In this document: one piece after another, positions 44,561 through 62,764 of the stretch
How positions within the stretch are numbered: the stretch's first letter is position 1
How the letters are laid out: the number at the start of each line of letters is the position of its first letter
Assembly: GCA_963844715.1 (NCBI GenBank)
Contig: CAWJPJ010000001.1
Coordinates: forward strand, 64,001-128,000
Source: an uncultured Phycisphaerales bacterium
Lineage (GTDB): Bacteria > Planctomycetota > Phycisphaerae > Tepidisphaerales > Tepidisphaeraceae
DNA: 64,000 nt
Direction of reading: 5' to 3'
Position numbers and translations under genes: made by a program
Notes under the pieces: generated by a model
Told to the model about the DNA's origin: nothing
Database searches by the model: none
Seen by the model: only the letters and a program-made list of their open reading frames with translations

Positions 44561-46216
44561 CTAGAACTCTTCATGCTCCACATGATCGCGCTGCGTATCG
44601 GCGATTCCACGATACTGATGAATCGAAAGATCGTCCACATTATGCAACACAATATTCGGCCGCCCCGGGGCATGCGGCGCCTTGATATGCGTCAAATCCA
44701 CATCCTTCACGTCGTCCAGGTAATACGCCGGCCGCATGTCTTCCTTGAGCGTGCTCATGTCGATATCCGTCAGGTCGATCCCCGTGACGTGCCGGATGAA
44801 AAATCCGTACGACGGCATCCCCCGAAATCGCGACGGCTCGGGATAGTCCTTCGCCTGCTCCTCGGGCCGCGTCGCGGCTTGCGCCAGCGTCACCCCGCCG
44901 GGATACTGAATCTGCACGTTGCTGATGTGCAAATCCTCGATGTCATGCCCCGGCACCCCAGTAATCAGCGCCGCAAAACGCCCCGCCATATTCGTGATAT
45001 TGATATTGCTGATCTGCACGCGCCGGATCGCCCCCATGGAAGTCTGATCCGCCGGCCCGCGCAAGCGCTCGCCCAGGCGGATGAAGATCGGATTGTTCAC
45101 CACATCCCGCATCGTGATGTTGGAGATTACCACGTCCTCGATGATCGCCCCGTCCACGCTCTCCAGCGCCAGCCCCCCGCAGTAATCGACCACGCAGTTG
45201 GATATGGCGATGTTCTTGAATCCGCCGTTGGATTCCGTCCCGAATTTGATCCGGCCGGTTCGCGCCGCGTGCCGGTCCGGGCTGTAATCGAGTCCGATCC
45301 GCTTATACGTGCCATCGATCATCGTCCCTTCTTCATACCCGCCGGTGACGAAGCAATTGGTGATGGTCACGTTTTCCGTCGCGCGGTTATACCCCGGCCC
45401 AAAGCTGCTCTTGAGGCACAACCCGTCATCCCACGGCGAATTGATGCTGCAATTGGAAACCCGCACGTTCCGGCAGCAATCGATATCCATCCCGTCCCGA
45501 TCCGTATCGATCTTCACGTTATCGATCGTGAAATTATCCACCGCCGTCGCCAGCAGCGCAAAGTGCCCGCCATTCAAAATCGAAATGTCGCGCAGGATCA
45601 CGTTCTTGCAGTTCTTCAGCGCGATTGTCTTGTTCCCCACACCCGCCGGCAGCGCATCTTTCGGATCGGGATACACCGGCTCCGGCGAAGGTTTCGTCGT
45701 CGAGTCCACCGCCGCATCCTGATCCAGCCCGTACGGCAGGAATTTCCGCTCGGGATGCAAATTCGCCCCGTGACTCAAACCCCTCCCCCAGATCAACCCC
45801 GGCCCTTCGATCGCCACGTTTGATAAATCCTCACCCCAGAACAAACTGTTGTGCCAGTGGCTGTGCCCGAAATCCATGTAATGATCCCATGCAAACGGCT
45901 CCGGCGGATCGTACTGACCCGCCTTATCCGTCCCGGCGGCAAGCACCATCGCCCCCTGATCGAGATAAATCGTCGTATTGCTCTTCAGGTGGATCGAATA
46001 ACAAAGATAAGTCCCCGCCGAAAAACGCACGGTCCCCCCGCCCGCGTCCGAAGCGGCGGCAATCGCGCTATTGACCGCGTCCGTATCGAGCGTTTGCCCA
46101 TCCCCTTTGGCGCCAAACGCGCGCACACTGTAGATTTCCGACGTAGCCTGGCATCCCCCCAACAACGACACAACGAGCAGCAGCAGCGACCAGCGCTGCC
46201 TCAGCGATTTCATCAT
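44561..46216 (-). CDS. Glycoside hydrolase family 28 (polygalacturonase-like) lipoprotein
   Basis: Lipobox LLGGC, FGAKGDG..DT.A, RDGMDIDCC, DDGLCLKSS, RIKFGTESNGG. Confidence 0.92.
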   Translation of the reverse strand: MMKSLRQRWSLLLLVVSLLGGCQATSEIYSVRAFGAKGDGQTLDTDAVNSAIAAASDAGGGTVRFSAGTYLCYSIHLKSNTTIYLDQGAMVLAAGTDKAGQYDPPEPFAWDHYMDFGHSHWHNSLFWGEDLSNVAIEGPGLIWGRGLSHGANLHPERKFLPYGLDQDAAVDSTTKPSPEPVYPDPKDALPAGVGNKTIALKNCKNVILRDISILNGGHFALLATAVDNFTIDNVKIDTDRDGMDIDCCRNVRVSNCSINSPWDDGLCLKSSFGPGYNRATENVTITNCFVTGGYEEGTMIDGTYKRIGLDYSPDRHAARTGRIKFGTESNGGFKNIAISNCVVDYCGGLALESVDGAIIEDVVISNITMRDVVNNPIFIRLGERLRGPADQTSMGAIRRVQISNINITNMAGRFAALITGVPGHDIEDLHISNVQIQYPGGVTLAQAATRPEEQAKDYPEPSRFRGMPSYGFFIRHVTGIDLTDIDMSTLKEDMRPAYYLDDVKDVDLTHIKAPHAPGRPNIVLHNVDDLSIHQYRGIADTQRDHVEHEEF

Positions 46217-46249
46217 AGGGTTGGTTCCTGTCGAAGGTTCAGGAGGGAA

Positions 46250-46279
46250 AGTATACGTGAAGCGTCCCCGGGCGCACAA
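46250..46279 (-). promoter_or_regulatory. Putative promoter of the GH28 gene (duplicated at 54494-54523)
   Basis: Minus strand TTGTGC-N18-TATACT, ~35 nt upstream of the GH28 ATG; identical in both repeat copies. Confidence 0.5.
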
Positions 46280-46325
46280 TTCGTGCGACCGGCCGCAATA
46301 CGCGAAATGATGGTTTCCGCGAAAC

Positions 46326-46510
46326 TTAGGCGGCTCTGCCGCGCAACCCGCGCCGGATTAATCCAATCGCCGCCAGGCCGCCCAGCATGCCCAGACCCGC
46401 CCAATCAGCCGCCGGAAGAGGAACCGCCGTCGATCCTCCGCCCGTCCCGGTGCCGGTCGGATTGAAGAAATCGAAATAGGCGCAGTTGAGGAGATACGTA
46501 TTTTCGGAAG
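46326..46510 (-). pseudogene. Orphan 3' fragment of the lectin/VPLPA-CTERM gene
   Basis: Reads SENTYLLNCAYFDFFNPTGTGTGGGSTAVPLPAADWAGLGMLGGLAAIGLIRRGLRGRAA*; in-frame stop just upstream (~46545) and no start codon. Confidence 0.88.
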
Positions 46511-46576
46511 CTTTTTCGTAAAGCCAGATATGAGTCCTTGACCGTTAGGGAACGCGACCGTACCGTCTGAGCCGTC

Positions 46577-46972
46577 GTGCTGAGTTTTCGCCATTTCATT
46601 TCCGCGGCGATTACGACTGTCCTACTGGCCGGCGGTGTTCCCTGTTTGACTTGTTCGCCCGCTGTCTGTGCGGCAAGCACGGAATGTGCATCTGTTCACT
46701 GCAATCGCTGCGGGCAAAACTGTCCCATGTCGAAAACTTCTCATGAATCGCACAAGCACGACGCCAATTGCAAGCAACAATGCCCGCCGATCACCGCCGA
46801 CAGGGTGGTAACGAACAGCAATTCGCAGTCATTTGCCGTGGCGATGTTGTCCGTTGCTGAAGTGCAGCCTTTTCTCTTCGGATACACAAGTTCCTGCGCC
46901 CCTTCGATCCGTCAGTCTGTTATCGCGCACCCCCCCTCACTTCTTAGCTTAAATTGCCAGCTGACGATCTGA
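46577..46972 (+). CDS. Small Cys/His-rich secreted or membrane-anchored protein upstream of the efflux operon (possible metal-sensing leader)
   Basis: Hydrophobic N-terminus, CLTC, HCNRC..CP, HESHKH, CKQQCPP, C-terminal HPPSLLSLNCQLTI. Confidence 0.7.
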   Translation: MLSFRHFISAAITTVLLAGGVPCLTCSPAVCAASTECASVHCNRCGQNCPMSKTSHESHKHDANCKQQCPPITADRVVTNSNSQSFAVAMLSVAEVQPFLFGYTSSCAPSIRQSVIAHPPSLLSLNCQLTI

Positions 46973-47073
46973 TTCCCTCCAAAACCTGACCACGATTGCA
47001 TCTCGCGATTCCGCCGTATCGGCGTGAATGTGCGCCTCTTTTTCAAACCGAAGTTCTCATTGCGCAGAATCCC

Positions 47074-48531
47074 ATGAAAACAATTGTCATTGTGGCATCC
47101 ACCATCGTTTTGACCTTAGCGGCTGTATTTGCGGTGCAAACCATCTCCGGGAAATTGCACCCAAAGAGCGAGTTGACGGCGGTGGCTGCTTCAACCGCTC
47201 AGCCCAGGCAACTATGGACATGTGGGATGCACCCCCAGGTCATCCAGGATCATCCAGGCTTTTGCCCCATCTGTCACATGAGGCTCGTGCCGTTGAACAT
47301 GGATTCCTCCGCCGGCGCGGGAAATTCCGCCGGAGAACAACGGAAAATCCTTTACTACTGGGATCCCATGTTGGGGCCTTCGTCCATCGCGCATGTCACC
47401 GGCAAGAGCGCGATGGGCATGGACTTGGTGCCCGTCTATGAGGACGAGCAATCCGCCGGTCCGACGGTCACAATTGATCCGACAATCGTTCAGAACATGG
47501 GGGTCCGAACCGCCGAAGTCTCTCGCGGGCCGTTGGCGAAAACGGTGCGGGCGGTGGGAATTCTGGAAGTTCCCGAGCCGGGGCAATACGACATTAACCT
47601 CAAGATCAATGGCTGGATCAAGAAGCTCTACGCCGATCAGGAGGGGATGCACGTCCATAGGGGCGACGTGCTTTTTGACCTATACAGCCCCGATCTACAG
47701 GTTGCGGAAGAGGAGTTGATCGGGGCTGTCAAATCGCTCAAGTCCCTCGATCCAAACGCGTCGAATGCGTTGCGGTCAGAGTCACAAGACCTGGTCGCCT
47801 CAGCGAAACAAAAGTTGCGGCTGTGGGATGTCGCCGACGAAGACATTGCGGGGATTGCCCAGGCGACGCAAGCGCCCGAGACGGTTCCATTCCGCAGCCC
47901 GGCGAACGGCGATGTGATCGACAAAATGGTGGTTCAAGGTTCGGCCGTTCAGGCAGGCATGAAAGTGATGCGGATCGAAGACCACACGAAACTGTGGCTC
48001 GACGCCCAGGTGTACGAAGACGACATCCCGCTGGTTGCTCTCGGCCAAACCGTGCAGGCAACGGTCGAAGCTTCGCCCGGCAAGACATTTTCCGGCCCCA
48101 TCACATTCATTTATCCCCATCTGGATCACATGAGCCGTACGGTTACGGTTCGCGTCACCCTTGATAATCCAAACCATGAACTCAGCCCCGGCATGTATGC
48201 CACCGCGAATATCCTAACCCAACCCGTGTCGGACGCGGTGTTGGTCCCGCGCGAGGCAGTGATTGACACCGGTACCCGGCAGATCGCCTTTGTGGCCTTG
48301 GCGGAGGGTCACTTCGAGCCGCGAAAGGTTCGTATGGGCGTGATGGGCGACGACGATCGCGTGCAAATTCTGGAAGGATTGGCACCCGGAGAAACAGTGG
48401 TGACCAGTGGCCAATTCTTGCTCGATGTCGAAAGCCGCACAACGGAAGCAATCGACAAGCTGCGTCGGTCCTCTGCCAGTCCCATCGAACAGGCCGCTCC
48501 GGGCCAGGAACTCCTGCATCCGGTCAATTAA
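47074..48531 (+). CDS. cusB: CusB-like RND periplasmic adaptor with N-terminal heavy-metal-binding domains
   Basis: WTCGMHPQVIQDHPGFCPICHM.LVP, YYWDPM..GKSAMGMDLVPVY, QNMGVRT, YSPDL, FIYP.LD, PGMYA, VTSGQFLLD.ES. Confidence 0.9.
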   Translation: MKTIVIVASTIVLTLAAVFAVQTISGKLHPKSELTAVAASTAQPRQLWTCGMHPQVIQDHPGFCPICHMRLVPLNMDSSAGAGNSAGEQRKILYYWDPMLGPSSIAHVTGKSAMGMDLVPVYEDEQSAGPTVTIDPTIVQNMGVRTAEVSRGPLAKTVRAVGILEVPEPGQYDINLKINGWIKKLYADQEGMHVHRGDVLFDLYSPDLQVAEEELIGAVKSLKSLDPNASNALRSESQDLVASAKQKLRLWDVADEDIAGIAQATQAPETVPFRSPANGDVIDKMVVQGSAVQAGMKVMRIEDHTKLWLDAQVYEDDIPLVALGQTVQATVEASPGKTFSGPITFIYPHLDHMSRTVTVRVTLDNPNHELSPGMYATANILTQPVSDAVLVPREAVIDTGTRQIAFVALAEGHFEPRKVRMGVMGDDDRVQILEGLAPGETVVTSGQFLLDVESRTTEAIDKLRRSSASPIEQAAPGQELLHPVN

Positions 48532-51185
48532 CAGATGCCCATAATCATCCGCAGGGAAATCCCATGATTGCAAAGATCATCGAATTGTCAATCCGCAATA
48601 AGTTCATGGTTCTCCTGCTGACGGCAATGCTTGTCGTGGCGGGGATCTGGGCGACGATCCATATCAGCTTGGACGCTGTGCCCGACCTGTCCGATGTTCA
48701 AGTGATCGTCACTACCGATTATCCAGGCCAAGCCCCTGACGTTGTGGAAGATCAAGTCACCTATCCGCTGACGACCGCCATGATGGGCATTCCTCACGCC
48801 AAGGTAGTGCGCGGCATCAGCATGTTTGAGCAGTCGTTCATCTACATAATCTTCGATGACGGCACCGACCTGTATTGGGCGCGCAGCCGGGTGCTGGAAT
48901 ACCTCAACTTCGTGAAGGACCGGCTTCCGGCCGGCGTCGAGCCGAAGTTGGGGCCTGACGCGACGGGCGTCGGATGGGTTTACCAATACGTCCTGTACCC
49001 CGGCTACTACAGCCCCGATCATCCCAACGGGATTTGGCATGATGAGTCGAACAACAAGTGGTATGCGGATCCGAGCCAGGCCTCCTCAGATCGCAGAGCG
49101 TCGCTGGTCAAGGTACGGGCGTTCGAAAAGCCCGGCCTATGCCCCCTCGACGGCAAGCCGCTTGTTCCTTCCAACCAGGATTTGGCGAGCCTGCGCAGTC
49201 TTCAGGATTGGTATTTGCGCTATCAGCTCACGGCCGTGCCGAATGTCGCCGAAGTCGCGTCGATCGGCGGCTTCGTCAAGGAATATCAGGTCGTGCTCAA
49301 GCCCGAGCGTCTGCTGGCGTACAAACTTCCCGTCAGCACGATCATGACCGCGATTCAGCGCTCCAACAATGATGTTGGCGGATCGGTCATCGAGATGAGC
49401 GAAAACGAGTACATGGTCCGCAGCCGTGGGTATCTCAAAGGATTGGAAGACTTGGCGGATGTCCCGGTCGGCGTCGGCAAGGACGGCACGCCAATCATGC
49501 TCTCGGACGTGGCCACGCTACAGATCGCCGGCGAGGAACGGCGCGGCGTGGGCGAATGGAACGGCGACGGCGAGGCCGTGGGCGGCGTGGTCATCGCGCG
49601 CTTCGGCGCCAACGCCTATCAAGTCATTCAGGACGCCAAGGCTAAGCTCGCCGATCTGGAAAACGGCCTGCCGCCCGGCGTCGTGATTAAAACGGCATAC
49701 GACCGCTTCGATTTGATCGAGCGCGCCGTTCACACGCTGCGGCACACCCTACTTGAGGAAATGCTTGTCGTCGCGCTGGTGTGCGTATTCTTTCTGTTGC
49801 ACGCGCGCAGCTCCCTCGTGGCGATCTTCGTCATTCCCAGCAGTATGCTCATCAGTCTATTGGCGATGCACCTCCTGGGCATCAACGCCAACATCATGAG
49901 CCTGGGCGGAATCGCCATCGCCGTCGGCGTGGTGGTGGACAGCGCGATCATCATGGTTGAGAACGCCCACAAGCATCTCAATCACGAAGAAGAGCGCGTC
50001 CGTGCCGGCGAGCCGTCGCGCCCGCGCAACGACATCATCATGGACGCGGCCAAAGAGGTCGGACCCAGCCTATTTTTCAGTCTTCTAATCATCACGGTCA
50101 GTTTCATGCCGGTGTTCGTTCTCGGCGGGGAAAGTGGTCGGCTGTTCAAGCCGCTCGCCTTCACCAAAACGTTCGCCATGGCGTCCGCATCGGTGTTGTC
50201 GATCACGATCATCCCGGTGCTCATGGTTTATTTCATCACGGCTCGCACGTTGCCCAAGGCGTGGGGCCGGAAGACAAATCTGTTCATTACGCTCGCGGCG
50301 ATTTTAATTCCGGCCGGTCTGTTGTATTGGCTGCCGCGTCTTGAGCCGGATTTGCAACCGTATCGCTGGTGGATGGCGGGCGGCTGGGGGCTTCTGGCGG
50401 CAATGGTGCTCGTGCCGCAGAAGATCATCCACGAAGAACGAAGTCCGATCAGTTACACATTGCAGAAGGTCTATAACCCATTCTTCTGGGCGGCGATGAA
50501 ATTCCGCTGGGTGGTGTTGGTCCTGGCTCTAGCGTTCATGGCTTCCGCCGTCTGGCCGCTCATGCGGCTCGGCAGCGAATTCATGCCGCCGCTGGACGAG
50601 GGCGATCTGCTCTACATGCCGACTACCGATCCAAGTATCAGCGTCACGAAAGCACGGCAGGTCCTCCAGCAGACCGACAAACTCATCAAGACCTTTCCCG
50701 AAGTCGTCAGCGTTTACGGGAAGATCGGCCGCGCCGACACCGCGACCGACCCTGCTCCGCTGGACATGATTGAAAGTGTCACTCGCTTGCAGACGGACCC
50801 GAGCAAATGGCGTAAGCGGAAGATGAGCTATTTCTTCGATACCTGGCCGTCCACCCTCCGCTGGCCTTTCGAGCACACATTCTGGCCGCACGAGCGCAAA
50901 ATCACCATGGATGAACTGGTCTACGGCTGGCAGGACCCAGACGGGACCGACCATCCCGGCTTGAATGCGGTCGTGACCGAGCCGGGCGTTGCCAATGCCT
51001 GGCCGATGCCCATCGAGAACCGCACAAACATGCTTTCCACCGGCATCAAGACGCCGGTGGGAATCAAGATAATGGGGCCCGACCTGCAAGTGCTGGCGGA
51101 TTTGGCCGAGAAGGCTTCGACGATCATGCTCACCGTTCCCGGCACGACCAGCGCGTATCCTGAACGATCCTTCGGCGGTTATTAC

Positions 51186-52024
51186 CTAGGGCCTGTCTGA
51201 TGAATCCAAAATCCTGAAATAGCGACGGATCATGGCGAGCTTGGCCATGGCCTGAAAGTTCACCGCCAGTTTCTCGTAACGCGTGCCCAGGCGGCGATTC
51301 TCCTTCATCCAATTCACGCAACGCTCCACCACGTTCCGTCGGCGATACGCCTTGCGATCAAAGTTCTCCTGCGGCGGCTGATTCGATTTCGCCGGGATCA
51401 CCGCTTGGATTCGGTGGCGACGCAGCCATCGCCGCACATTTCCGTAACTGTATCCCTTGTCGCCCGCCAGCCTCCTGGGGCGACGACGGCGGCGACCGAT
51501 GCGCATCGCGTTCATCACCGGCTCCACGTACCGGCTCTCGTGGCATTGGCCGGCGCTGGCCTCGACGGCGAGCGGAACTCCCTGGCCGTCAGTAACCAGG
51601 TGGAGCTTGCTGCCCCACCCGCCTCGGCTGCGGCCCAACGCGTGATCCGCCGGTTCTTCCGGGGCGGTTTTGATTTTCTGGCTCCGGCGGCGGATCGACT
51701 GGCTCGCACATTGGTGCCGTCGATGCACCACAGGTCCCAGTCGATTCGTCCTTGCTTGTCCAACCTCATCTGCAGCCGCTGGAGGATTCGATCAATCGTT
51801 CCGTCCTTTCTCCAGCGGTTGAAGCGGTCGTAGACGCTTTGCCATCTGCCGTAACGTTCGGGCATCTCGCGCCATTGAGCGCCCGAGTGCAGAATCCAGA
51901 ACATGCCGTTGAGCGTGGTGCGGTGGTCGTTCCACTGCCCGCCGCGCTTGCCGTTGCCGGGCAGCAGATCGCCGATCAACTCGTACTGCTCATCCGTGAG
52001 CTCATAACGTCGCATCCGTGACAC
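51186..52024 (-). CDS. IS5-family transposase in two overlapping ORFs (-1 shift near 51670)
   Basis: ELTDEQ, SGAQWREMPERYGRWQSVYDRFNRW, IDGTNVRA; LGRSRGGWGSKLHL, AGDKGY, YRRRNVVERC, RRLGTRYEK. Confidence 0.95.
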
Positions 52025-52074
52025 CTCGTCTGAAAACCGCTATTTATAACTAAAAGCGATTCATCAGACAGGCC
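51190..52074 (-). mobile_element. IS5-family insertion sequence (IS427-like group), ~885 bp
   Basis: Perfect 17-bp terminal inverted repeats GGCCTGTCTGATGAATC/GATTCATCAGACAGGCC flanked by duplicated CTAG (51186-51189 and 52075-52078; alternatively a TA duplication with 18-bp IRs). Confidence 0.97.
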
Positions 52075-53077
52075 CTAGATATCGACGTCAACCGCCAGCA
52101 AGCCGCACGCTACGGGCTGACCACCGGCGATGTGCAGGACGTCATCAGCACGAACCTCGGCGGAATGAAGACGACGACCGCCGTTGAAGGGCTGGAACGC
52201 TATCCGGTGAACATTCGCTATGCCCGCGATCTCCGAGACGATCCGTCGGCCATCAAGGAAGTCCTTGTCCCGACGCCGACCGGCGCTCAAATTCCGCTCG
52301 GTGAACTCGCCACGGTCAAGATCGATCCTGGCCCACCGATGATCAAGAGCGAAAACGCCCGGCGTACCGCCTGGATATTCGTGGATATGTCGGGGCGCGA
52401 TATCGGCAGCTTCATCGCAGATGCGCAGGCCGCCATTCAGCAAAAACTTCAATTGCCCGCTGGATACACGCTCGTCTGGTCGGGCCAATTCGAGAACATC
52501 CAGCAAGCCGACGCACAATTGAGATGGGCCGTTCCGCTCACATTTATCATCATTGTCATGTTGCTCTATGCCGCCACGAGAAGCTGGTTCAGGGTCGGCG
52601 TTGTATTGCTGGCGGTGCCGTTCAGTCTCGTCGGGGCAATCTGGTTCCTCTACCTGCTCGGTTACAACATGAGCCTGGCAGTGTGGATCGGAATCATCGC
52701 CCTGGCCGGACTCGATGCCGAAACGGGTTTGGTGATGCTGCTGTACCTCGACAATAGTTACGAGCGGTTCAAGACCGAGGGAAGGATGCGGACTCGCGCG
52801 GACCTGTGGCAGGCCGTCTATGACGGCGCGGTGAAGCGAATCCGACCCAAGACCATGACGGTCGCCGCGGCGTTCATCGGCTTAGTTCCGCTGCTCTGGG
52901 CGACCGGAACCGGGGCTGATGTCATGCGGCGGCTTGCCGCCCCAATGCTTGGCGGACTATTCACCAGCTTCCTGATGGAACTGCTGATTTATCCAATCAT
53001 CTTTTATGTGGCAAAAGGAATTGGATTGGGGCAGAAACCAACGGTGACAGAGCCTCAGGTCATGCTGGAGGGCATTC

Positions 53078-54452
53078 ATGCCTAATTTCATATCTGTTTT
53101 TCGGCTGATGATTGTCATGGTGCTGGTGGGATTGGCCGGCTGCACCGTCCACCCTCCGGGCGAACGCGAAGAACGCGACGCGGCACTGCGAACAGGCAAG
53201 CCGTTCGACAAGCCATTCGAAGCCCGCCCAACTGCATTACTGCCGGAAAACCCAACACCAGATCAATTGGTGGAATACGCGTTGCTGAACGACGCGGAAT
53301 TGGAGCAGCGCTATTGGGAATGGCGGTCGGCAATCGAGCAGATTCCACAGGACGGCACGCAATCCACGACTTTCAACCTCATGGCCGGAACAAACATCGC
53401 CAATGAGCGCGCCAGTTGGGGAAGCAGCACAGTGGCATTGTCCAACGACCCCATGACCGACATCAAGTGGCCAGGCAAGTTGGATGCTGCGGCCAAGCAA
53501 ACGCTGGAGAATGCGCGTGCTGCGGGTCGGCGTTTCATCAAGGCGAAATACGACCTCCGGAATAAGGTGCTCAGTGCTTACTACGACTACGCATTGAACG
53601 CGGAACTGATTCGTTTGGAACGAAGCAATCAACAATTGCTCGAGACGACAGCAACAGTCACCGAAGCCCGAAACCGTGCCGGCAGTTCCGGCCAGGAAGA
53701 CGTGCTGAAAGCGGACAACGAAGTGGATATGTCAGGCAACGACATCGCCAATATGGAATCGCAGTTGCCGAGCCAGCGCGCGGCGATCAACGCGCTCATG
53801 AGTCGTCCAGTAGATGCTCCATTGCCCGTGCCGACAGAATTGCCCCGGGCGCGATCACTGGCATATGCGGACGGGGAACTGGTTGAATTGGCCGCGAAAC
53901 AAAATCCCGAACTCATTGCCCTCGCGGATGAGATACGAGGTCGTGGCGAAGGGATACGGCTCGCCAAACTTCAATACGTGCCCGATTTCAACCTGAGCCT
54001 TGGAACAGACCTGATGGGCGTCACGCAGTCGGTGTTGGGCCAAGCGACGATTCCGATCTTTAGGTACGAAACGCTCAATGCCGCTATAGCGCAGGCCGAG
54101 GCCAACCTTCGCGCTTCTGAAGCGATGCGCCGCCAAGCCGGGAATGACTTGGCGGCACGGGTGGTTTTGGACATCAGGATCATTCAAGACTCCGACCGTC
54201 AACTTGATTTATTCGAGCACACGATCCTCCCGCACGCCCGAGAGGTCGTAAATGTCGGCCGGTCCGCATATGAGGCAGGTCTGCGCCACACTGCTCGATC
54301 TCCTGGGCGATCACCGGTCATTGATCGCCCTTGAACGTTTCGTTGCCAATCTTAGAATTGCTCGGGAAAAGCATCTTTCGGATCTTGAGTCGATCACGGC
54401 CAGTGACCTATCAGATCGGCATCTGGGAAATGCTCAAGCCGCTGTTCATTAA
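53078..54452 (+). CDS. TolC/CusC-family outer-membrane efflux lipoprotein; apparent frameshift near ~54285
   Basis: Lipobox LAGC, WPGKL, NPEL, YVPDF.L, IPIF, AYEAG..LLDLL; overlaps the cusA stop. Confidence 0.88.
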
Positions 54453-54462
54453 TGCTTCGGAA

Positions 54463-54754
54463 GGTTGGTTTCCGTCGAAGACTCGGAGAGCGAAGTATAC
54501 GTGAAGCGTCCCCGGGCGCACAATTCATGCGACGAGCCGCGACACGCAAAATGATGGATTTCCCGAGCCTTAAGCGGATCGGTTCCGCACGCCGCGCCGG
54601 ATCAAACCGATCGCCGCCAGGCCGCCCAGCATGCCCAGACCCGCCCAATCAGCCGCCGGAAGAGGAACCGCCGTCGATCCGCCGCCCGTTCCGGTGCCGG
54701 TCGGATTGAAGAAATCGAAATAGGTCCAGTCGAGAAGATATGTATTTTCCGAAG
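54463..54754. repeat. Right copy of the 292-bp direct repeat (contains the functional 3' end of the lectin gene)
   Basis: Ungapped match to 46219-46510. Confidence 0.95.
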
Positions 54755-55457
54755 AAGCCCCGTCGGCGGAAGTAAACCCGGCAAACGCGTTGGACTGCCC
54801 AAGAACGTCCGGAATATTCACCGCATACGTGAGCAGCGGGGTCGTCGGCTTGACCGTTGTATTCGCATCCACGGCATACACGCTCAAATCCGATCCGTTG
54901 TAATCGATCCATGCCGTCCAGATGGTGCCGTTGTCGAATTGCGTCGGCACATTCGTCTGTCCGCCGGGGAAATCGCCGTTGTCGATATCACCGTCCGTCG
55001 CCACGCCGATGTAATTTGAACTGGGATCGTTGTTCGCCGTGTTCTGAAACGTATCAAATTTCACCGCCACGCTCGGCGTGATCCCCTGATATCCGATCCC
55101 CTCGCCCGCCTCCCCCGCGCTGGAGCTTTCCGTCTGCACGGTAAAGACCAGTCCGTCCGCTCCCACCTGCGTCCCGTCGCTGATCCCGACCGGGTCATTC
55201 ATGCGCCACTGAAAGCTCGTGCTGAATCCCGTAGCCGCCTGAAGCTGCGTCGTGCTGAAGACGGTCCCGAAGACGAAACTCCCGCCGCTCGGCTGAAGCT
55301 CCAAAACGTTCGTATCCCCGGCCCCATCGTTGGCGACTTGCTCAGTGAAGCCGTTGAGGGTCAGCCCCGATGTGCTCGCAAAGTTATTAAAAGTAACGGT
55401 AGTGGCTGAAGCCACGGAGGCGGCCAACACTCCCGCCGCGAACGCGAGAAGACGCAT
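54570..55457 (-). CDS. Secreted legume (L-type) lectin-domain protein with VPLPA-CTERM (PEP-CTERM-like) exosortase sorting signal
   Basis: Signal peptide MRLLAFAAG.., FSTSFQW, GADGLVFTVQ, GIGY.G, SVAVKFDTFQN, AWIDYNG, FAGFTSA; tail VPLPAA-W.GL..L + TM + RR. Confidence 0.9.
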   Translation of the reverse strand: MRLLAFAAGVLAASVASATTVTFNNFASTSGLTLNGFTEQVANDGAGDTNVLELQPSGGSFVFGTVFSTTQLQAATGFSTSFQWRMNDPVGISDGTQVGADGLVFTVQTESSSAGEAGEGIGYQGITPSVAVKFDTFQNTANNDPSSNYIGVATDGDIDNGDFPGGQTNVPTQFDNGTIWTAWIDYNGSDLSVYAVDANTTVKPTTPLLTYAVNIPDVLGQSNAFAGFTSADGASSENTYLLDWTYFDFFNPTGTGTGGGSTAVPLPAADWAGLGMLGGLAAIGLIRRGVRNRSA

Positions 55458-56081: not shown

Positions 56082-59000
56082 GTGAAATTCGGAAAAAAGA
56101 GCCGCCGCGCGGAATCTATCGGCGCGTCTATCTGGTCGGCCAAGCCTGCGCTTCAAACCCAGCATTGAAACCCTTGAATCGCGCATCTTGCTCAGCACAT
56201 ACATTACCGATCCTTTTTCGGAGCATCTTGCCGCGCATCAGTCCGTGGGCACGCCGACGATCATCGATCTCGGCGTCGTGCCTCAGGTCTCCGCCGACAG
56301 CCTGTCCGCTCCCTTCAATCCCAGCCAGATTCGCCAGGCGTATGGCGTGGATCAGATCTCCTTCAACGGCACCGCCGGCACCGGGGCCGCACAAACCATC
56401 GCCATCGTCGATGCCTACAGCGACCCGGACATCATCTCCGACGCCAACGCCTTCAGCTCGAACTTCGGCTTGCCGCAGTTCAACGGCTCCGGCGAACCGA
56501 CGCTCACCGTCCTGAATCAAGACGGCGGCACCTCTCTCCCCGGCACCCCGACGCCCGGAACCTGGGACGCCGAGGAATCTCTCGACGTCGAATGGGCCCA
56601 CGCCATGGCGCCCGACGCCAACATCATCCTCTTCGAGGCCAACACCAACTCCACCACCAATCTCTTCAAAGCCGTCAGCGAAGCCGCCGATTACGCCGGC
56701 GTTTCCGTCGTCTCGATGAGCTGGGAAAATTCCGAAGTTTCCGGCGAAACTTCCCTCGACTCCGACCTCACCACTCCCAAGGGACATCAAGGCGTCACCT
56801 TCGTCGCGTCCACCGGCGACGTCGGCGGGCAGACCGATTATCCGTCCACGTCGCCCAACGTCCTGGCGGTCGGCGCGACCAGCCTCACCATCAACAGCGA
56901 CGGCTCCTACGGCTCCGAATCCGCCTGGGCCGACGGCGGCGGCGGAGTCAGCCAGTACGAATCGCAGCCGAGTTACCAAACCGGCAATGTCAATGGCGCC
57001 AGCACCACCAACCGCACCGTCCCGGACGTTTCCATCGACGGCGACCCGAACACCGGCGTCTATCTCCTCGACACTTTCGACAACGCCTCCTACCAGGAAG
57101 CCGGTGGCACCAGTCTTGCCGCGCCGATGTGGGCCGGCCTCATCGCCGATGCCGATCAGGGCCTGGCCCTCAAGGGAGACGGCACGCTCAACGGCGCAAC
57201 GCAAACCCTCCCCGATCTCTACAACCTTCCCAGCTCCGATTTCCACGACATCACAACCGGCAGCAACGGCTTCCCCGCGACAACCGGATACGACCTGGCC
57301 ACGGGTTTGGGGACTCCCATCGCCAATCTTCTCGTCCCCGCATTGGCCGGCTATTCCACGACTTCGACCGCGTCGAGCCTCGTCTTCACCCAACAGCCCA
57401 GCAACGTAACCGCCGGAAACTCCATCGGCCCCTCCGTCGTCGTGAAAATCGAAGACCAGGACGGCAACGTACTCAGCGATGACAACTCCGACGTGACGTT
57501 TAGCGTCAACAGCGGCCCGGGATCGCTCGTGGGCACCCCCGTCACCGTCCAGGCCGTCGACGGCGTCGCGACATTCAGCAATCTCGTCCTCGACACTGCC
57601 GGCAATTACACCCTCAAGGCTTCCGACTCGACCGACTCACTCAGCAATTTCGCTTCCAGCAGCTTCACCGTCTCCCCCGCCGTGGCGGAGCAACTCGTCT
57701 ACTCCAGGAACCCTTCAAGCGGCACAGCCGGGACGGCGCTCTTCTTCCGTCGCACTGACCATCGAAGATCAATTCAACAACGTCGAAACCGGAGATACCT
57801 CCAGCGTGTCGATCTCCGCCAGCGGTCCGGGATCGCTGACCGGCAGCTCCACGACGACCGTCAGCGCCGTCAAAGGCGTGGCGACATTCAGCAATCTCGT
57901 CCTCGATACGTCCGGGTCTTATACGCTCAGTGCAACGGATTCATCGGATAGCCTCAGCAGCGGCGCATCGAACAGCTTCTCAGTCTCTCCCGCAGCCGCG
58001 AATAAATTGGTCTTCACAACCGAACCCTCCGCCGGCACGGCAGGCGTCGCCCTCTCCTCCGTTGGCGTCACCATCGAAGATCAATTCGGGAATATCGAGA
58101 CAGGGGACTCAAGCAGCGTAACCATCGCCGCCTCCGGACCCGGGCCGCTCACCGGTTCCTCGACGACCAGCGCATCGGCCTCCAAAGGCGTCGCGAACTT
58201 CAGCAATCTCGTCCTCGATACCGCCGGCAGCTACACGCTGAAGGCCTCGGATAGTTCGGATACTCTGAGCAATTTCGCGTCCAGCAGTTTCAGCATCTCC
58301 CCCACAACGGCGTCGAAGATCGTCTTCACCAGCCAACCCACAAGCGGCACCGCCGGAACGGCCCTCGCCTCGGCGAATCTCAGCATCGAGGACCAGTTCG
58401 GCAACGTCGAAACCGGCGACACAACCAGCGTCACCATCGCCGCAACCGGACCTGGTCCGCTGACGGGCTCTTCCACGGCCAGCGTCAACGCCGTGGACGG
58501 CGTGGCGAAGTTCACCAATCTCCTCCTCGACACCGCCGGCAGTTACACCCTTAAGGCGACCGACGCCACAGACAGCCTCACCAGCGCGGCATCCACCAGC
58601 TTCACTGTCTCCCCCGCCGCCGCCACGCAGCTTCTTTTCACCACCAACCCGATCAGCGGAACCGCTGGCACGGCGCTCGCATCCGTCGCGCTCACCATCG
58701 AAGATCAATTCGGCAACGTCGAGACCGGCGACAATTCAACCGTTACAGTCACCGCCGCCGGACCCGGATCGCTCGTCGGTTCGCCCGTCGGCGTCAGCGC
58801 ATCCAAAGGCATCGCGACATTCAGCGATCTCGTCCTCGACACGGCCGGTAGCTACACGCTCAAAGCCACCGACAGCTCCGACAGCCTGACCAGCGCGGCG
58901 TCCAATTCGTTCAGCGTCTCCCCCGCCTCAGCCTCGCGCGTGATCTTCAGCGCCCAGCCGGTCGGCACAACCGCCGGAGACGCGTTGGCGTCCGTGTCTC

Positions 59001-62000
59001 TGACGATCGAGGATCAATTCGGAAATACCGAAACCGGCGACACCAGCAGCGTGTCGATTGCCGTCACCGGACCAGGACCGTTGGCGTCGGGATCGGTACA
59101 GCGCTGTGAATGCGGCCGCCGGCGTGGCGACGTTCAACAACCTGACTCTCGACACCGCCGGCAGCTATACCCTCAAAGCAACCGATTCCAGCGACAGCCT
59201 CACGAGCCCGGTCTCCAATTCATTCACGATCACCCCCGCCACCGCGTCGCAACTCGTTTTCACCATACCTCCCACAAGCGGCACAGCCGGTTCGCCTCTC
59301 TCATCCGTCGCCCTCAGCATCGAGGATCGATTCGGAAACGTCGAGACGGGCGATACATCGAGCGTTTCGATCTCCCCGACCGGGCCGGGGGCGTTCACGG
59401 GAGGTTCCACAACCAGCGTGACTGCTTCCGCCGGCGTCGCGAATTTCAGCAATCTCGTCCTCGACACCTCCGGAAGCTACACGCTCAAAGCGACGGACAC
59501 CGCCGACAGCCTCACCAGCGCCGCCTCCAACAGTTTCAACGTCGCGGCCGCTACCTCGAACAAACTGGTCTTCACCCAGGAATCGACCGCCGTCACGGCC
59601 GGCGTGGCGATCACCCCGTCCGTCGTCGTCAAAATCGAGGACGAGAACGGAAACGTCCTGACCAGCGACACATCCAACGTGACGCTCACCGTTCAATCCG
59701 GCCCCGGCTCCCTTGTCGGCGGAACCGTCACGGCGCAAGCCTCGGGCGGCGTCGCCACGTTCAGCAATCTGATCCTCGACACCGCCGGAGCGTACATGCT
59801 CTCCGCTTCCGACGGCACGGATGGACTAAGCAATTTCGCCTCGACAAGCTTCACGGTGTCCCCCACGACGGCCGGCAAATTGGTCATCACCACCCAGCCG
59901 ACCGGCGGCACCGCCGGCAAGGCAATCGCATCCGTCACCTTCACGATCGAAGATCAATTCAACAACGTCGAAACGAGTGATAGCTCCAGCGTCCTGGTGT
60001 CCGCCGGCGGGCCGGGGTCTCTGGCGGGCGGTTCGACGGCAAGCGTCGCGGCAAACAAAGGCGTGGCGACATTCAGTAATTTGATTCTCGACACCGCGGG
60101 CGGATATACGCTCAGCGCATCGGATTCCACCGACAGTGTCAGCCGCGGCGCGTCCAATAGCTTCACGATCGCGCCCGCCACCGCGATGCAATTGATGTTC
60201 ACGACTCCACCGACGAGCGGCACCGCCGGCTCCACGCTGTCGCCGGTTGCCCTGAGCATCGAGGATGCATTCGGAAACGTCGAAACCGGCGATACGTCCA
60301 CTGTCTCGATCGCCGCGACCGGGCCCGGGCTCTTGACTGGATCTTCCACCGCCAGTGTCAGCGCCATCAAAGGCGTGGCCACATTCAGCAACCTCACCCT
60401 CGACACCGCCGGGTCCTACACGCTCAAAGGTACCGACGCCGCCGATTCCCTCGCCAGCGCCGCATCGGGTGCCTTCAACGTCAACCCCGCCTCGTCCGAT
60501 AAACTCGTCTTCACGCAAGAGCCAACCAGCGTGATGGCGGGAAACGCGATCTCTCCCACCGTCACCGTCAAGATCGAGGACCAGAACGGCAACGTCCTGA
60601 CCGGCGACGACTCCAACGTCTCCCTCACCGTAGATACCGGCCCAGGCGCCCTCGTCGGCGGAACCGTGACGGCGCAGGCTTCGGGCGGAATCGCCACCTT
60701 CAGCAATCTCGTCCTCGATACCGCCGGGGCCTACACCCTTTCAGCTTCCGACACCACCGACGGCTTGAGCAATTTCTCGTCCAGTTCCTTCACCGTCTCC
60801 CCCGCCGCCGCCAGTAAACTCGTCTTCACAACCGGGCCGGTCAATGGCACGGCCGGCTCGGCGATCTCGCAAGTGGCGCTCTCCATCGAAGACCAGTTCG
60901 GCAACGTCGAAATCGGCGATACCTCCAACGTCGTGATCTCGGCCGCCGGCCCCGGCGGCTATCGGCCGGCTCCACGACCACAGTCGCGGCAGTCAAAGGC
61001 GTCGCCACATTCAGCAATCTGGTCCTCGACACCACGGGCTCGTACACCCTCAGCGCTGCCGATTCGACGGACAGCCTCAGCAGCGGCCCGTCCACGAGCT
61101 TTTCAATCTCGACCGGCTCCGGCGAAAAACTGGTCTTCACGGCCGGCCCCGCAAGCGCCACCGCCGGGAATTTGCTCTCGTCCATCTCCGTTTCGATCGA
61201 AGATCAATTCGGAAACGTCGAATCGGGCGATACGTCCGCCGTTTCGATCACCGCCAACGGCCCCGGTTCCTTCGCGGCCGGCTCGACCACCATCGCAAAC
61301 GCCAGCGCCGGTGTGGCGACCTTCGGAAATCTCACTCTCGACACCGCAGGGAGCTACACGCTGACGGTCACCGATTCCGCCGACGGCATCCATGTTACGT
61401 CGGCCTCCATCACCATCTCCCCCACCGCGGCAAGCCAGTTGGTCTTCAGCGCTCAACCGACCGACGGAACCACGACCGCGCCCCTGGCGCCCATATCGGT
61501 CACCATCGAAGATCAATTTGGCAACCCCGAGACGAGCGACACCTCGGCGGTAAGTTTGACGATCACCAGCGCCCCGTTCGGCGGCGCGTTCACGAATACC
61601 TCGACCCTCTCCGTCAACGCCGTTGCAGGCATTGCGACCTTCAGCAATCTCACTCTGAACACCGCCGGCAGCTACGCCTTCACGGCTTCGGACACGACGG
61701 ACAGCATCACCAGTCCTGAATCGAATCGCTTCACCGTCACAACGCCGACCGTGACGGCTCCCGTCGCCAGCCAACTCGTCTTCCTCCAGCCGCCGACGGA
61801 CATCACGGCCGGCGGAACGATCACCCCCGCGGTCACCGTTCAAATTGAGGATAGCGGCGGCGACGTCATGACCGGCGACGACTCCCAAGTGACGATCGCG
61901 ATTGATACCGGCCCCTCCGGGGCGACTCTCGGCGGAACGCTCACCGTCGCCGCCAAGAATGGAGTCGCGACATTCTCCGATCTTTCGCTCGCAACCGCCG

Positions 62001-62764
62001 GGCAATACACGCTACAGGTTACCGACACCGCGGACGGCCTCACCAGCGCCGCGTCCAATGCCTTCACGGTTAACCCCGTCGTTTCCACCGGCGTCGCCAC
62101 GCATCTGGTCTTCATTCAGGAGCCGACCAGCGCGACGGCGGGAAGCACCCTCAGTTCCGTCATCGTCGCCGCCGAAGACCAGAACGGAAATATCGTCACC
62201 ACCGACGACGCCACCGTGACGCTCGCGATCGACGGACCGAACCGCGACTTCCGAAGTTGGCATCATCGCGGAAGCATGACCATCCAACTCGTCGACGGCG
62301 AAGCCACCTTCAGCGATCTTTCCCTCCGCCGCGCCGGCGCCTACACGTTGACCGCATACAGCCACGGATTGACTGGCGCCGTCTCCACGAGCTTCACGAT
62401 CACCCCCGCCGCCGCGACGCACATGATCTTCCAGCGCGTCCCCTGCTTCACAACCGACGGCAAAACTTTCGACGTCCAGATCGTTCTCGTCGATAAATAT
62501 GGAAATATCGCCACGAACGACACCTCGACCATAACGCTTTCCCTCGGCAAATCCCCGTCCGGCGCCGCCCTGGGCGGAACGCTGACGGCAACCGTAACCA
62601 ACGGCGTAGCGACGTTTTCCGGCCTCTCCGTAAACGATCCGGGAACCTACACCCTCGTCGCAACCGACAGCAATTCCATCCCCGTTATCACTTCCGCCCC
62701 GTTTTGCGTCCCAGCCGCCCGGAATCCTTTCTTTCGCTGCTTCGGGTTCTTCCGTCGCTTTTAG
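56082..62764 (+). CDS. Giant (~2200 aa) extracellular S53 (sedolisin/kumamolisin) peptidase with LEPR-XLL motif and 17 tandem Ig-like repeats; apparent frameshifts near ~56095, ~57740, ~59100 and ~60960
   Basis: RBS GGAGGG then GTG at 56082; IETLESRILLS; QTIAIVDAY, EESLDVEWAH (Glu/Asp), STGDVG, PDVS, GGTSLAAP (Ser), GYDLATGLGTP; repeats LVF..P..TAG..IEDQFGN..GVATFSNL.LDTAG.YTL.A. Confidence 0.9.
57370..62710 (+). repeat. Array of 17 intragenic ~310-bp (~103 aa) Ig-like repeats
   Basis: Unit starts near 57373, 57690, 58000, 58315, 58625, 58933, 59246, 59558, 59875, 60187, 60498, 60813, 61125, 61433, 61768, 62100 and 62417. Confidence 0.9.

Follow-up and report, generated by a model that had tools for sequence, protein, structure and literature searches.

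The 64,000-nucleotide window analysed here (C1:64001-128000, contig CAWJPJ010000001.1, part of the 4.55-Mb, 8-contig assembly of an uncultured Phycisphaerales bacterium) carries a heavy-metal efflux cassette that lies between two copies of the 3' end of a lectin gene. The left copy (L, 46219-46510, minus strand) and the right copy (R, 54463-54754, minus strand) align ungapped over 292 bp at an offset of 8244 with 40/292 mismatches, in agreement with an earlier note on this DNA, which had counted about 40 by hand. Each copy comprises the last 60 lectin codons, the stop codon and 107 bp of intergenic DNA that ends 3 nt before the ATG of a GH28 gene, which is also the extent previously described. 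R forms the working tail of the lectin gene (stop at 54570-54572) and contains a second copy of the GH28 promoter; L is an orphan tail (stop at 46326-46328) followed by the intergenic DNA. The genome holds exactly two copies of the repeat and no other match of comparable identity. An 8-bp direct repeat, TTCGGAAG, marks the inner junctions: its left copy (46503-46510, plus strand) forms the last 8 nt of L and its right copy (54456-54463, plus strand) lies 3 nt past the tolC stop, so that the minus strand reads lectin body, R (tail and promoter), 8-mer, cassette, a second 8-mer as the start of L (again tail and promoter), and GH28. The 8-mer site falls within the lectin domain, ~80 bp upstream of the VPLPA motif, and only 27 bp (left) and 3 bp (right) of non-cassette DNA separate the 8-mers from the cassette.

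All genes of the cassette are on the plus strand. A predicted promoter (46538-46566; TTGACC, 17 nt, TACCGT) is followed by a Cys/His-rich leader open reading frame (ORF; 46577-46972), a cusB-type periplasmic adaptor with a heavy-metal-binding domain (46996-48531), a cusA-type heavy-metal RND pump (48564-53085) and a tolC/cusC-type outer membrane factor (53078-54452). The leader has no Pfam or NCBIfam match and a single homologue at 56%; it is conserved in the family genomes G151 and G153, and TTGACC is conserved before it in G151, G153 and G069. The adaptor matched PF16576 and PF19335, with PRK09783 below its cut-off. The N-terminal part of cusA scored above the cut-off of TIGR00914 (751.9 bits vs 701.45), and among proteins of solved structure it is closest to E. 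coli CusA (E 1.5e-223), to which the three Met motifs that presumably take part in Cu+/Ag+ binding could be aligned. The outer membrane factor (PF02321) has a C-terminus of ordinary length. The frameshift at 54282 in its gene is likely an assembly error, an extra base, because that base is missing from a contig of sequencing run X1, in agreement with a loose end from run X2.

An IS5-family insertion sequence of 885 bp (51190-52074, minus strand; NF033580, DUF4096 and DDE_Tnp_1) splits cusA after ~codon 875 and is flanked by a CTAG duplication (51186-51189 and 52075-52078). The genome carries 28 full-length copies of this element, ~99.5% identical, with CTAG on both sides in 26 of them; to judge from these copies it is the product of a recent burst and a recent passenger rather than the carrier of the cassette. 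Since it splits cusA, a non-functional pump is predicted for this assembly, and no joint skipping the insertion sequence was among those listed for X1. The island is thus neither the intact efflux unit of the earlier note nor made up of leader, cusB, cusA and tolC only. Its description as integrase-free stands, as no integrase was found when the main ORFs enclosed by the repeats were scanned against Pfam and NCBIfam, and a genome-wide search for the Phage_integrase family (PF00589) gave 38 matches, none of them between the repeats; the stronger wording, that no recombinase is present, fails on the DDE transposase of the IS5 element, which was inserted later. The element itself has two overlapping ORFs, which suggest a programmed frameshift, and its depth in X1 is ~87 vs ~5 for single-copy DNA.

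On the host side, the GH28 rhamnogalacturonidase-like gene (44561-46216, minus strand; NF049898, 682 bits, cut-off 500) starts 3 nt past the left repeat and shares 82.5% and 75% amino acid (aa) identity with its counterparts in G001 and G002, both of the same genus. Its predicted promoter (46250-46279, minus strand; TTG, 18 nt, TATACT) is the same in both repeat copies, and its TTG and TATACT are invariant ahead of GH28 in G001 and G002. Because a 34-bp perfect run covers these elements, the repeat takes in the predicted GH28 promoter. A strict sigma-70 scan returned 0 sites in 46150-47100 and called neither this promoter nor that of the cassette. The R copy (54494-54523) faces antisense into tolC and may dampen expression of the cassette. 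The lectin gene on the far side is intact (54570-55457, minus strand; legume-type, PF00139) and ends in a VPLPA motif, a transmembrane (TM) segment and a basic tail. These are visible by sequence, with the tail scoring 8.4 bits on TIGR03370, below the cut-off of 25.35. The lectin has an orthologue in G002 (74% aa), and its closest named record is from a Tepidisphaeraceae metagenome-assembled genome (73% aa). In G001 an amylase-like gene and no lectin is located upstream of GH28.

Divergence and selection in the repeat pair

The mismatches between L and R are unevenly spread, with perfect runs of 71 bp (46366-46436), 34 bp (46447-46480) and 34 bp (46249-46282). The longest of these, placed by the earlier note on the VPLPA-TM coding segment and found there, was reached in 0.024% of 100,000 random placements of 40 mismatches. 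Together with the adjoining 34-bp run it makes up a near-identical core of 115 bp (46366-46480, minus strand) with 2 synonymous mismatches, which spans the linker, VPLPA and TM segment and by its pattern is likely a crossover or conversion tract. Synonymous differences affect 2 of the 37 core codons vs 10 of the 23 codons outside, the core having been chosen post hoc; a permutation test on the longest clean run gave p = 0.017. Over all 60 codons, 12 differences are synonymous and 7 non-synonymous (pN/pS 0.22), a somewhat higher synonymous share than the half estimated before. In the intergenic part, 34 identical bases over the predicted promoter stand against 21 mismatches in the remaining 73 bases, and no indel separates L from R across the 292 bp. 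The low pN/pS, the lack of indels and the identical promoter segment together support the view that L and R are two alleles, both apparently shaped by selection.

This evidence bears directly on an old duplication within the lineage, in which insertion of the cassette at the 8-mer was followed by duplication of tail and promoter from a sister chromosome, after which the copies drifted while patchy gene conversion kept core and promoter identical. Such an origin would agree with the identity patches, which fit conversion, with the ~three derived states that each copy carries upstream of the core when the G002 orthologue is taken as outgroup, and with a W to C change in L, at a position where 13/13 lectin homologues carry W, as decay of the orphan. 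If one copy had been neutral, however, 15.7 non-synonymous changes would be expected and only 7 are observed (Poisson p = 0.012), without an indel in 292 bp, and the orphan retains its stop and basic tail. The synonymous excess over this one-copy-neutral model is modest, and the test against pN/pS 0.5 is non-significant in its conditional binomial form (p = 0.066). Identical repeats 8 kb apart are moreover expected to delete the intervening DNA, here the cassette, over time. On balance we consider an old duplication unlikely, if a serious contender.

Mobility of the cassette in the family

Comparison across the family revealed TolC matches at E 1e-60 in 64 of 140 genomes (the family counts, and the 29 tolC loci considered below, include G004 with one locus lacking a tail). 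The best TolC identities are found in other genera (G151 87%, G153 81%, G069 78%) vs 54% in the same-genus G002. The DNA of the cassette is 84% identical in G151, 81% in G153 and 76-84% in G069; the complete promoter-leader-cusB-cusA-tolC arrangement has different neighbours each time, and in G151 and G153 the DNA homology ends at the cassette promoter and at the tolC end. Because of the changing neighbours and the sharp limits of homology, the cassette is, on comparative grounds, a horizontally mobile unit in its own right, independent of the lectin tail. No integrase match occurs near it in G151, G069 or, on the contig concerned, G153. No long direct repeats bracket it in G151 or G069, nor do any bracket the operon at four related cus loci, and a search for an empty site of the G151 cassette did not find its flanks adjacent in 12 other genomes of its genus.

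The cassette of G153 (L093:7582-16585) belongs to an integrase-free array at tRNA-Val. A 35-bp fragment of the tRNA-Val 3' end (94%, with a one-base deletion) lies ~30 bp past the tolC stop, with the intact tRNA 1.8 kb away; its geometry and orientation are those of the tail at the window locus. A related cus operon in G034 (L025:528-7400) adjoins ParB, a TraD-like gene and two integrase-like ORFs, and in G034, G024 and G019 an extracytoplasmic function (ECF) sigma pair lies upstream of such operons. At the G034 locus, a tRNA-Ser called by ARAGORN overlaps the end of one integrase ORF, with an AbiEii gene and a tRNA-Gly further on.

These settings call to mind a decayed site-specific element, similar to a cis-mobilizable element (CIME), that once bore an integrase, targeted the 8-mer, supplied a 3' replacement and has since lost all its mobility genes. 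Besides the integrase- or tRNA-linked operons of G034 and G153, the geometry of the window locus recalls that of the icd elements, whose identity blocks reach ~250 bp (PMC10111431). The same source states that tyrosine integrases enforce identity at the crossover, whereas the site here differs between L and R at 1/8 bases. Furthermore, the stretches of 27 bp and 3 bp that separate the cassette from the 8-mers hold no integrase remnant, and the lectin-GH28 site was seen in no other genome searched. A decayed element of this kind is therefore improbable.

The 38 Phage_integrase matches of the genome could act in trans. Separately, we observed repeated trios of tyrosine recombinase genes (G000, the genome of the window: C7:885383-894721, C7:1355208-1357682, C8:2721-5195 and C8:833604-841629), which we take to resemble RIT elements, and a 45-kb region of dense 79-98% direct repeats with integrase matches (G000 C6:5565-51157) that looks like a mobile-element mosaic.

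Origin of the locus

Our tentative preference, held with slightly less than even confidence, is that the cassette entered the lectin gene of a relative at the 8-mer, captured its tail and promoter, and was later crossed into the window lineage by homology. The self-contained promoter-leader-cusB-cusA-tolC cassette would first have inserted at the 8-bp site and would then have captured the last 60 lectin codons and the GH28 promoter on a circle composed of 8-mer, cassette, 8-mer, tail and promoter, as would result if a cassette residing at this site were excised imprecisely. Imprecise excision is the model for the origin of icd-type replacement sequences. Entry into the window lineage would have required one homologous crossover inside the 292-bp piece, leaving a lectin gene with the upstream part of the host and the end of the donor, and on the far side an orphan tail whose end supplies the GH28 promoter. 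The identical core may have been left by heteroduplex repair or later gene conversion, after which an IS5 copy would have split cusA. As to enzymes, we infer RecA for the entry and, at the 8-mer, either microhomology or a tyrosine recombinase acting in trans.

A crossover located in the core would make the donor the source of the start of L and of both 8-mers. This fits the 8-mer itself, which is identical to the L allele and differs from R at one base of the homologous position (54750/46506), and it also fits the W to C change, which is found in a stretch of L that the donor would have carried as an orphan. The presence of the 8-mer at both inner junctions counts in favour: random position pairs shared an 8-mer within 2 nt in 0.1% and within 5 nt in 0.3% of 20,000 trials. 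Shared 7-10-mers between 150-bp end windows occur in G151, G153 and G069 too, and so only the exact position of the window 8-mer carries weight. The 8-mer also resembles the tRNA T-loop, over too short a stretch to be of use, and a terminator across the joined cassette ends was dropped since only ~one base pair crosses the join.

Two selected alleles would be accounted for equally well if linear DNA had been taken up and joined through a homologous anchor at one end and a microhomology joint at the other, a combination known as homology-facilitated illegitimate recombination. One copy would then be wholly the host's and the other wholly the donor's, with neither a circle nor a recombinase needed, and R indeed ends at the GH28 start, where the sequence of relatives partly resembles the 8-mer. 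This route would nevertheless require the joint to hit the 8-mer exactly at the cassette edge, 3 nt past the tolC stop, and it leaves the identical core unexplained; we rate it as rather unlikely.

Several observations weigh against capture on a circle followed by homologous entry. The 8-mer was spotted post hoc, so that the chance figures given above overstate its weight, and G153 has CGGAAG equally far from its cassette promoter, for which reason the left 8-mer may in part belong to the cassette itself. No inverted repeats were seen flanking the 8-mer junctions, and no circle or excised form was seen in the contigs searched. A crossover alone makes no identical core, and conversion must therefore be added; the modest synonymous excess described above counts in the same direction. 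In G153 the second, promoter-side tRNA fragment is degenerate and weak (24 bp, 83%, E 0.04). The composition of the cassette is not foreign, as 94 of 642 genome windows deviate equally. Finally, no empty lectin-GH28 allele was found in the 140 family genomes, none of them close, and as a result the halves cannot be assigned to host and donor and the order of events is unproven. The search of the empty junction suggested by the earlier note likewise returned nothing in 60 relatives, in metagenome contigs (10 loci, best 73% aa) and in species genomes (6 loci), with no match on plasmids; a full-length second lectin paralogue, which the note had linked to a decayed tandem duplication, is also absent from the genome. 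The single crossover that it proposed, if placed in the near-identical core, is plausible, and unproven for want of an empty allele.

Short-read contigs support the assembly at both inner junctions. The left one is bridged by an X1 contig (46444-47212) with 1 other letter at a depth of 4.4, and the right one by another (54159-54544) with 0 other letters and 1 gap (base 54282) at a depth of 4.3, compared with 4.7 in the lectin flank and ~4-7 in the cassette. All four runs (X1-X4) come from one study, and X1 is possibly the source sample; X3 and X4, which represent small shares, were left out of the evidence. An assembly artefact or strain chimera, which the earlier note had named as a danger, could draw on the indel errors of the assembly (54282, 56147), on the bridging being limited to the inner junctions with no contig spanning a whole repeat, and on X1 perhaps being the source sample. 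Since separately assembled contigs nevertheless bridge both inner junctions with the window alleles, it is very improbable. Beyond the lectin gene, 56188-62764 encodes a subtilisin/S53-like N-terminal region, recognized by eye, and then ~16 repeats of ~104 aa (312-bp period). This gene is interrupted by several frameshifts, which are likely assembly errors because X1 and X2 contigs lack the one at 56147.

Sorting-signal tails and known systems

The earlier note regarded the exosortase sorting signal as the attachment site and multi-copy tails as general docking sites for cargo. Our data do not bear this out. The 8-mer, the only signature at the junctions, is located ~80 bp ahead of VPLPA, and intergenic DNA with the predicted GH28 promoter makes up 107 bp of the repeat. 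The genome has two exosortase genes (PF09721 over cut-off) and 59 tail-motif matches, a few of them false, whose DNA similarity follows whole-gene paralogy. The lectin tail has a high-identity match only to its own copy, the next best being 76%/66 nt and 79%/52 nt at one other locus, and besides L and R tail-only DNA is shared by just one tandem pair (T33/T34, 87% over 67 nt). A self-comparison of the genome gave 53 low-copy direct repeats. In relatives, tail DNA families occur in G016 (79-86% over 70-97 bp) and in genus g18 (~500 bp at 70-74%), and in G002 the tail of one gene recurs, at 89% over 83 nt, in a neighbour located 1.7 kb downstream.

A survey of short-frame tails, as the earlier note had recommended, revealed no second island bracketed by an intact and an orphan tail among 8 candidates of the own genome and 7 of other genomes. 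Five of the 8 look like frameshifted whole genes, one is cut by another insertion sequence and one is likely a non-gene; the eighth (G000 C8:227079) is an orphan VPEP tail in a stretch of 52% GC with no partner copy in the genome. The survey of five other genomes drew on 150 of their 173 PF07589 matches, and none of the 7 shortest frames, from four genomes, is paired with a second copy around cargo within the 33-38 kb upstream. One of them in G016 (L105:17900-18200) is a true orphan VPEP tail directly after the stop of another gene, without an upstream partner. Out of 29 other tolC loci, 4 of which had <400 bp of flank, one has a convergent PEP-CTERM stop just past the tolC end; this is G151, the closest cassette (L090:1749-3506), where the two stops are ~40 bp apart and no orphan tail or long repeat lies on the other side. 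One further locus has a same-strand tail ~890 bp away. A single such neighbour in 29 is within chance, because tail genes are so common.

A bolder proposal is that in Tepidisphaeraceae the integrase-free cus cassette travels as a circle collecting target 3' ends, with exosortase-substrate 3' ends as preferred, self-repairing landing zones. It draws on the cassettes of the window and G151 both ending within ~120 bp of a convergent PEP-CTERM stop and on tails being multi-copy in some relatives, and we consider it improbable. Tail-mediated cargo capture and tail swapping could in principle be a general route. PEP-CTERM genes turn over fast according to PMC1569441, whose main text has no occurrence of "recombination" or "shuffl". 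Titles and abstract openings, from a literature of which subscription journals were mostly outside the scope, gave no account of a sorting-signal tail as an integration site. Were such ends recurrent landing zones, the capture of islands would be tied to this fast turnover, for which one suggestive neighbour now speaks.

Among known systems, the closest likeness is to islands at icd, tRNA and tmRNA genes, which have an intact target on one side, a displaced 3' fragment in the same orientation on the other, and cargo between (PMC10111431, PMC4383910). The comparison with e14 and phage 21, already drawn in the earlier note, is apt: both share the icd site (PMC3530522), and identity blocks between att sites reach ~250 bp at icd and tRNA genes, the attP then bearing a replacement sequence (PMC10111431). 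At the window locus the target gene is restored, a displaced 3' fragment lies in the same orientation, and the block is of similar length. In contrast to icd-type islands, the locus has no internal integrase, and the gene it targets is accessory and encodes a surface lectin. Its block shows 14% divergence, takes in the promoter of the next gene and is non-identical at its gene-internal end, and an extra 8-bp repeat lies inside both junctions. Instead of the identical ~7 bp crossover core of attL and attR, R and L differ at 54750/46506. Because the integrase and the identical core are both missing, we do not file the locus as an icd-type member.

CIMEs are described as cargo that lacks genes for integration or transfer and is flanked by repeats derived from the target (PMC5704250), and the window cargo corresponds to this, as does the G153 cassette behind its tRNA-Val 3' fragment. 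The window differs in having no adjacent integrative and conjugative or integrative and mobilizable element, no parent element that could be found, and an 8-bp repeat instead of demonstrated attL and attR. A composite or unit transposon was rejected, as no cassette-end inverted repeat was among the 25 longest listed and the single insertion sequence lies inside cusA. Similar to CusCBA operons on mobile DNA, the cassette has cusB, cusA and an outer membrane factor and a patchy, incongruent distribution in the family; it differs in its split cusA and in a short Cys/His-rich leader in place of the ECF sigma pair of the G034, G024 and G019 operons. The lectin resembles PEP-CTERM/VPLPA-CTERM substrates in its motif, TM segment and basic tail, in a genome with two exosortase genes, and departs from them in a tail score far below the TIGR03370 cut-off.

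Overall, the locus likely resembles known gene-restoring islands, with sorting signals as general docking sites finding no support. It concerns one event in one genome with a pump predicted to be inactivated, set in a wider pattern in which a copper/silver efflux cassette appears to move among soil Phycisphaerae without an integrase of its own. The capture of a target 3' end is thought to be the step that gives icd-type elements their replacement sequence. Hence, with its 8-bp scar inside a longer repeat, the window locus likely keeps a rarely seen intermediate on the way to such islands, in which the cargo has only recently acquired the 3' end of the gene it targeted.

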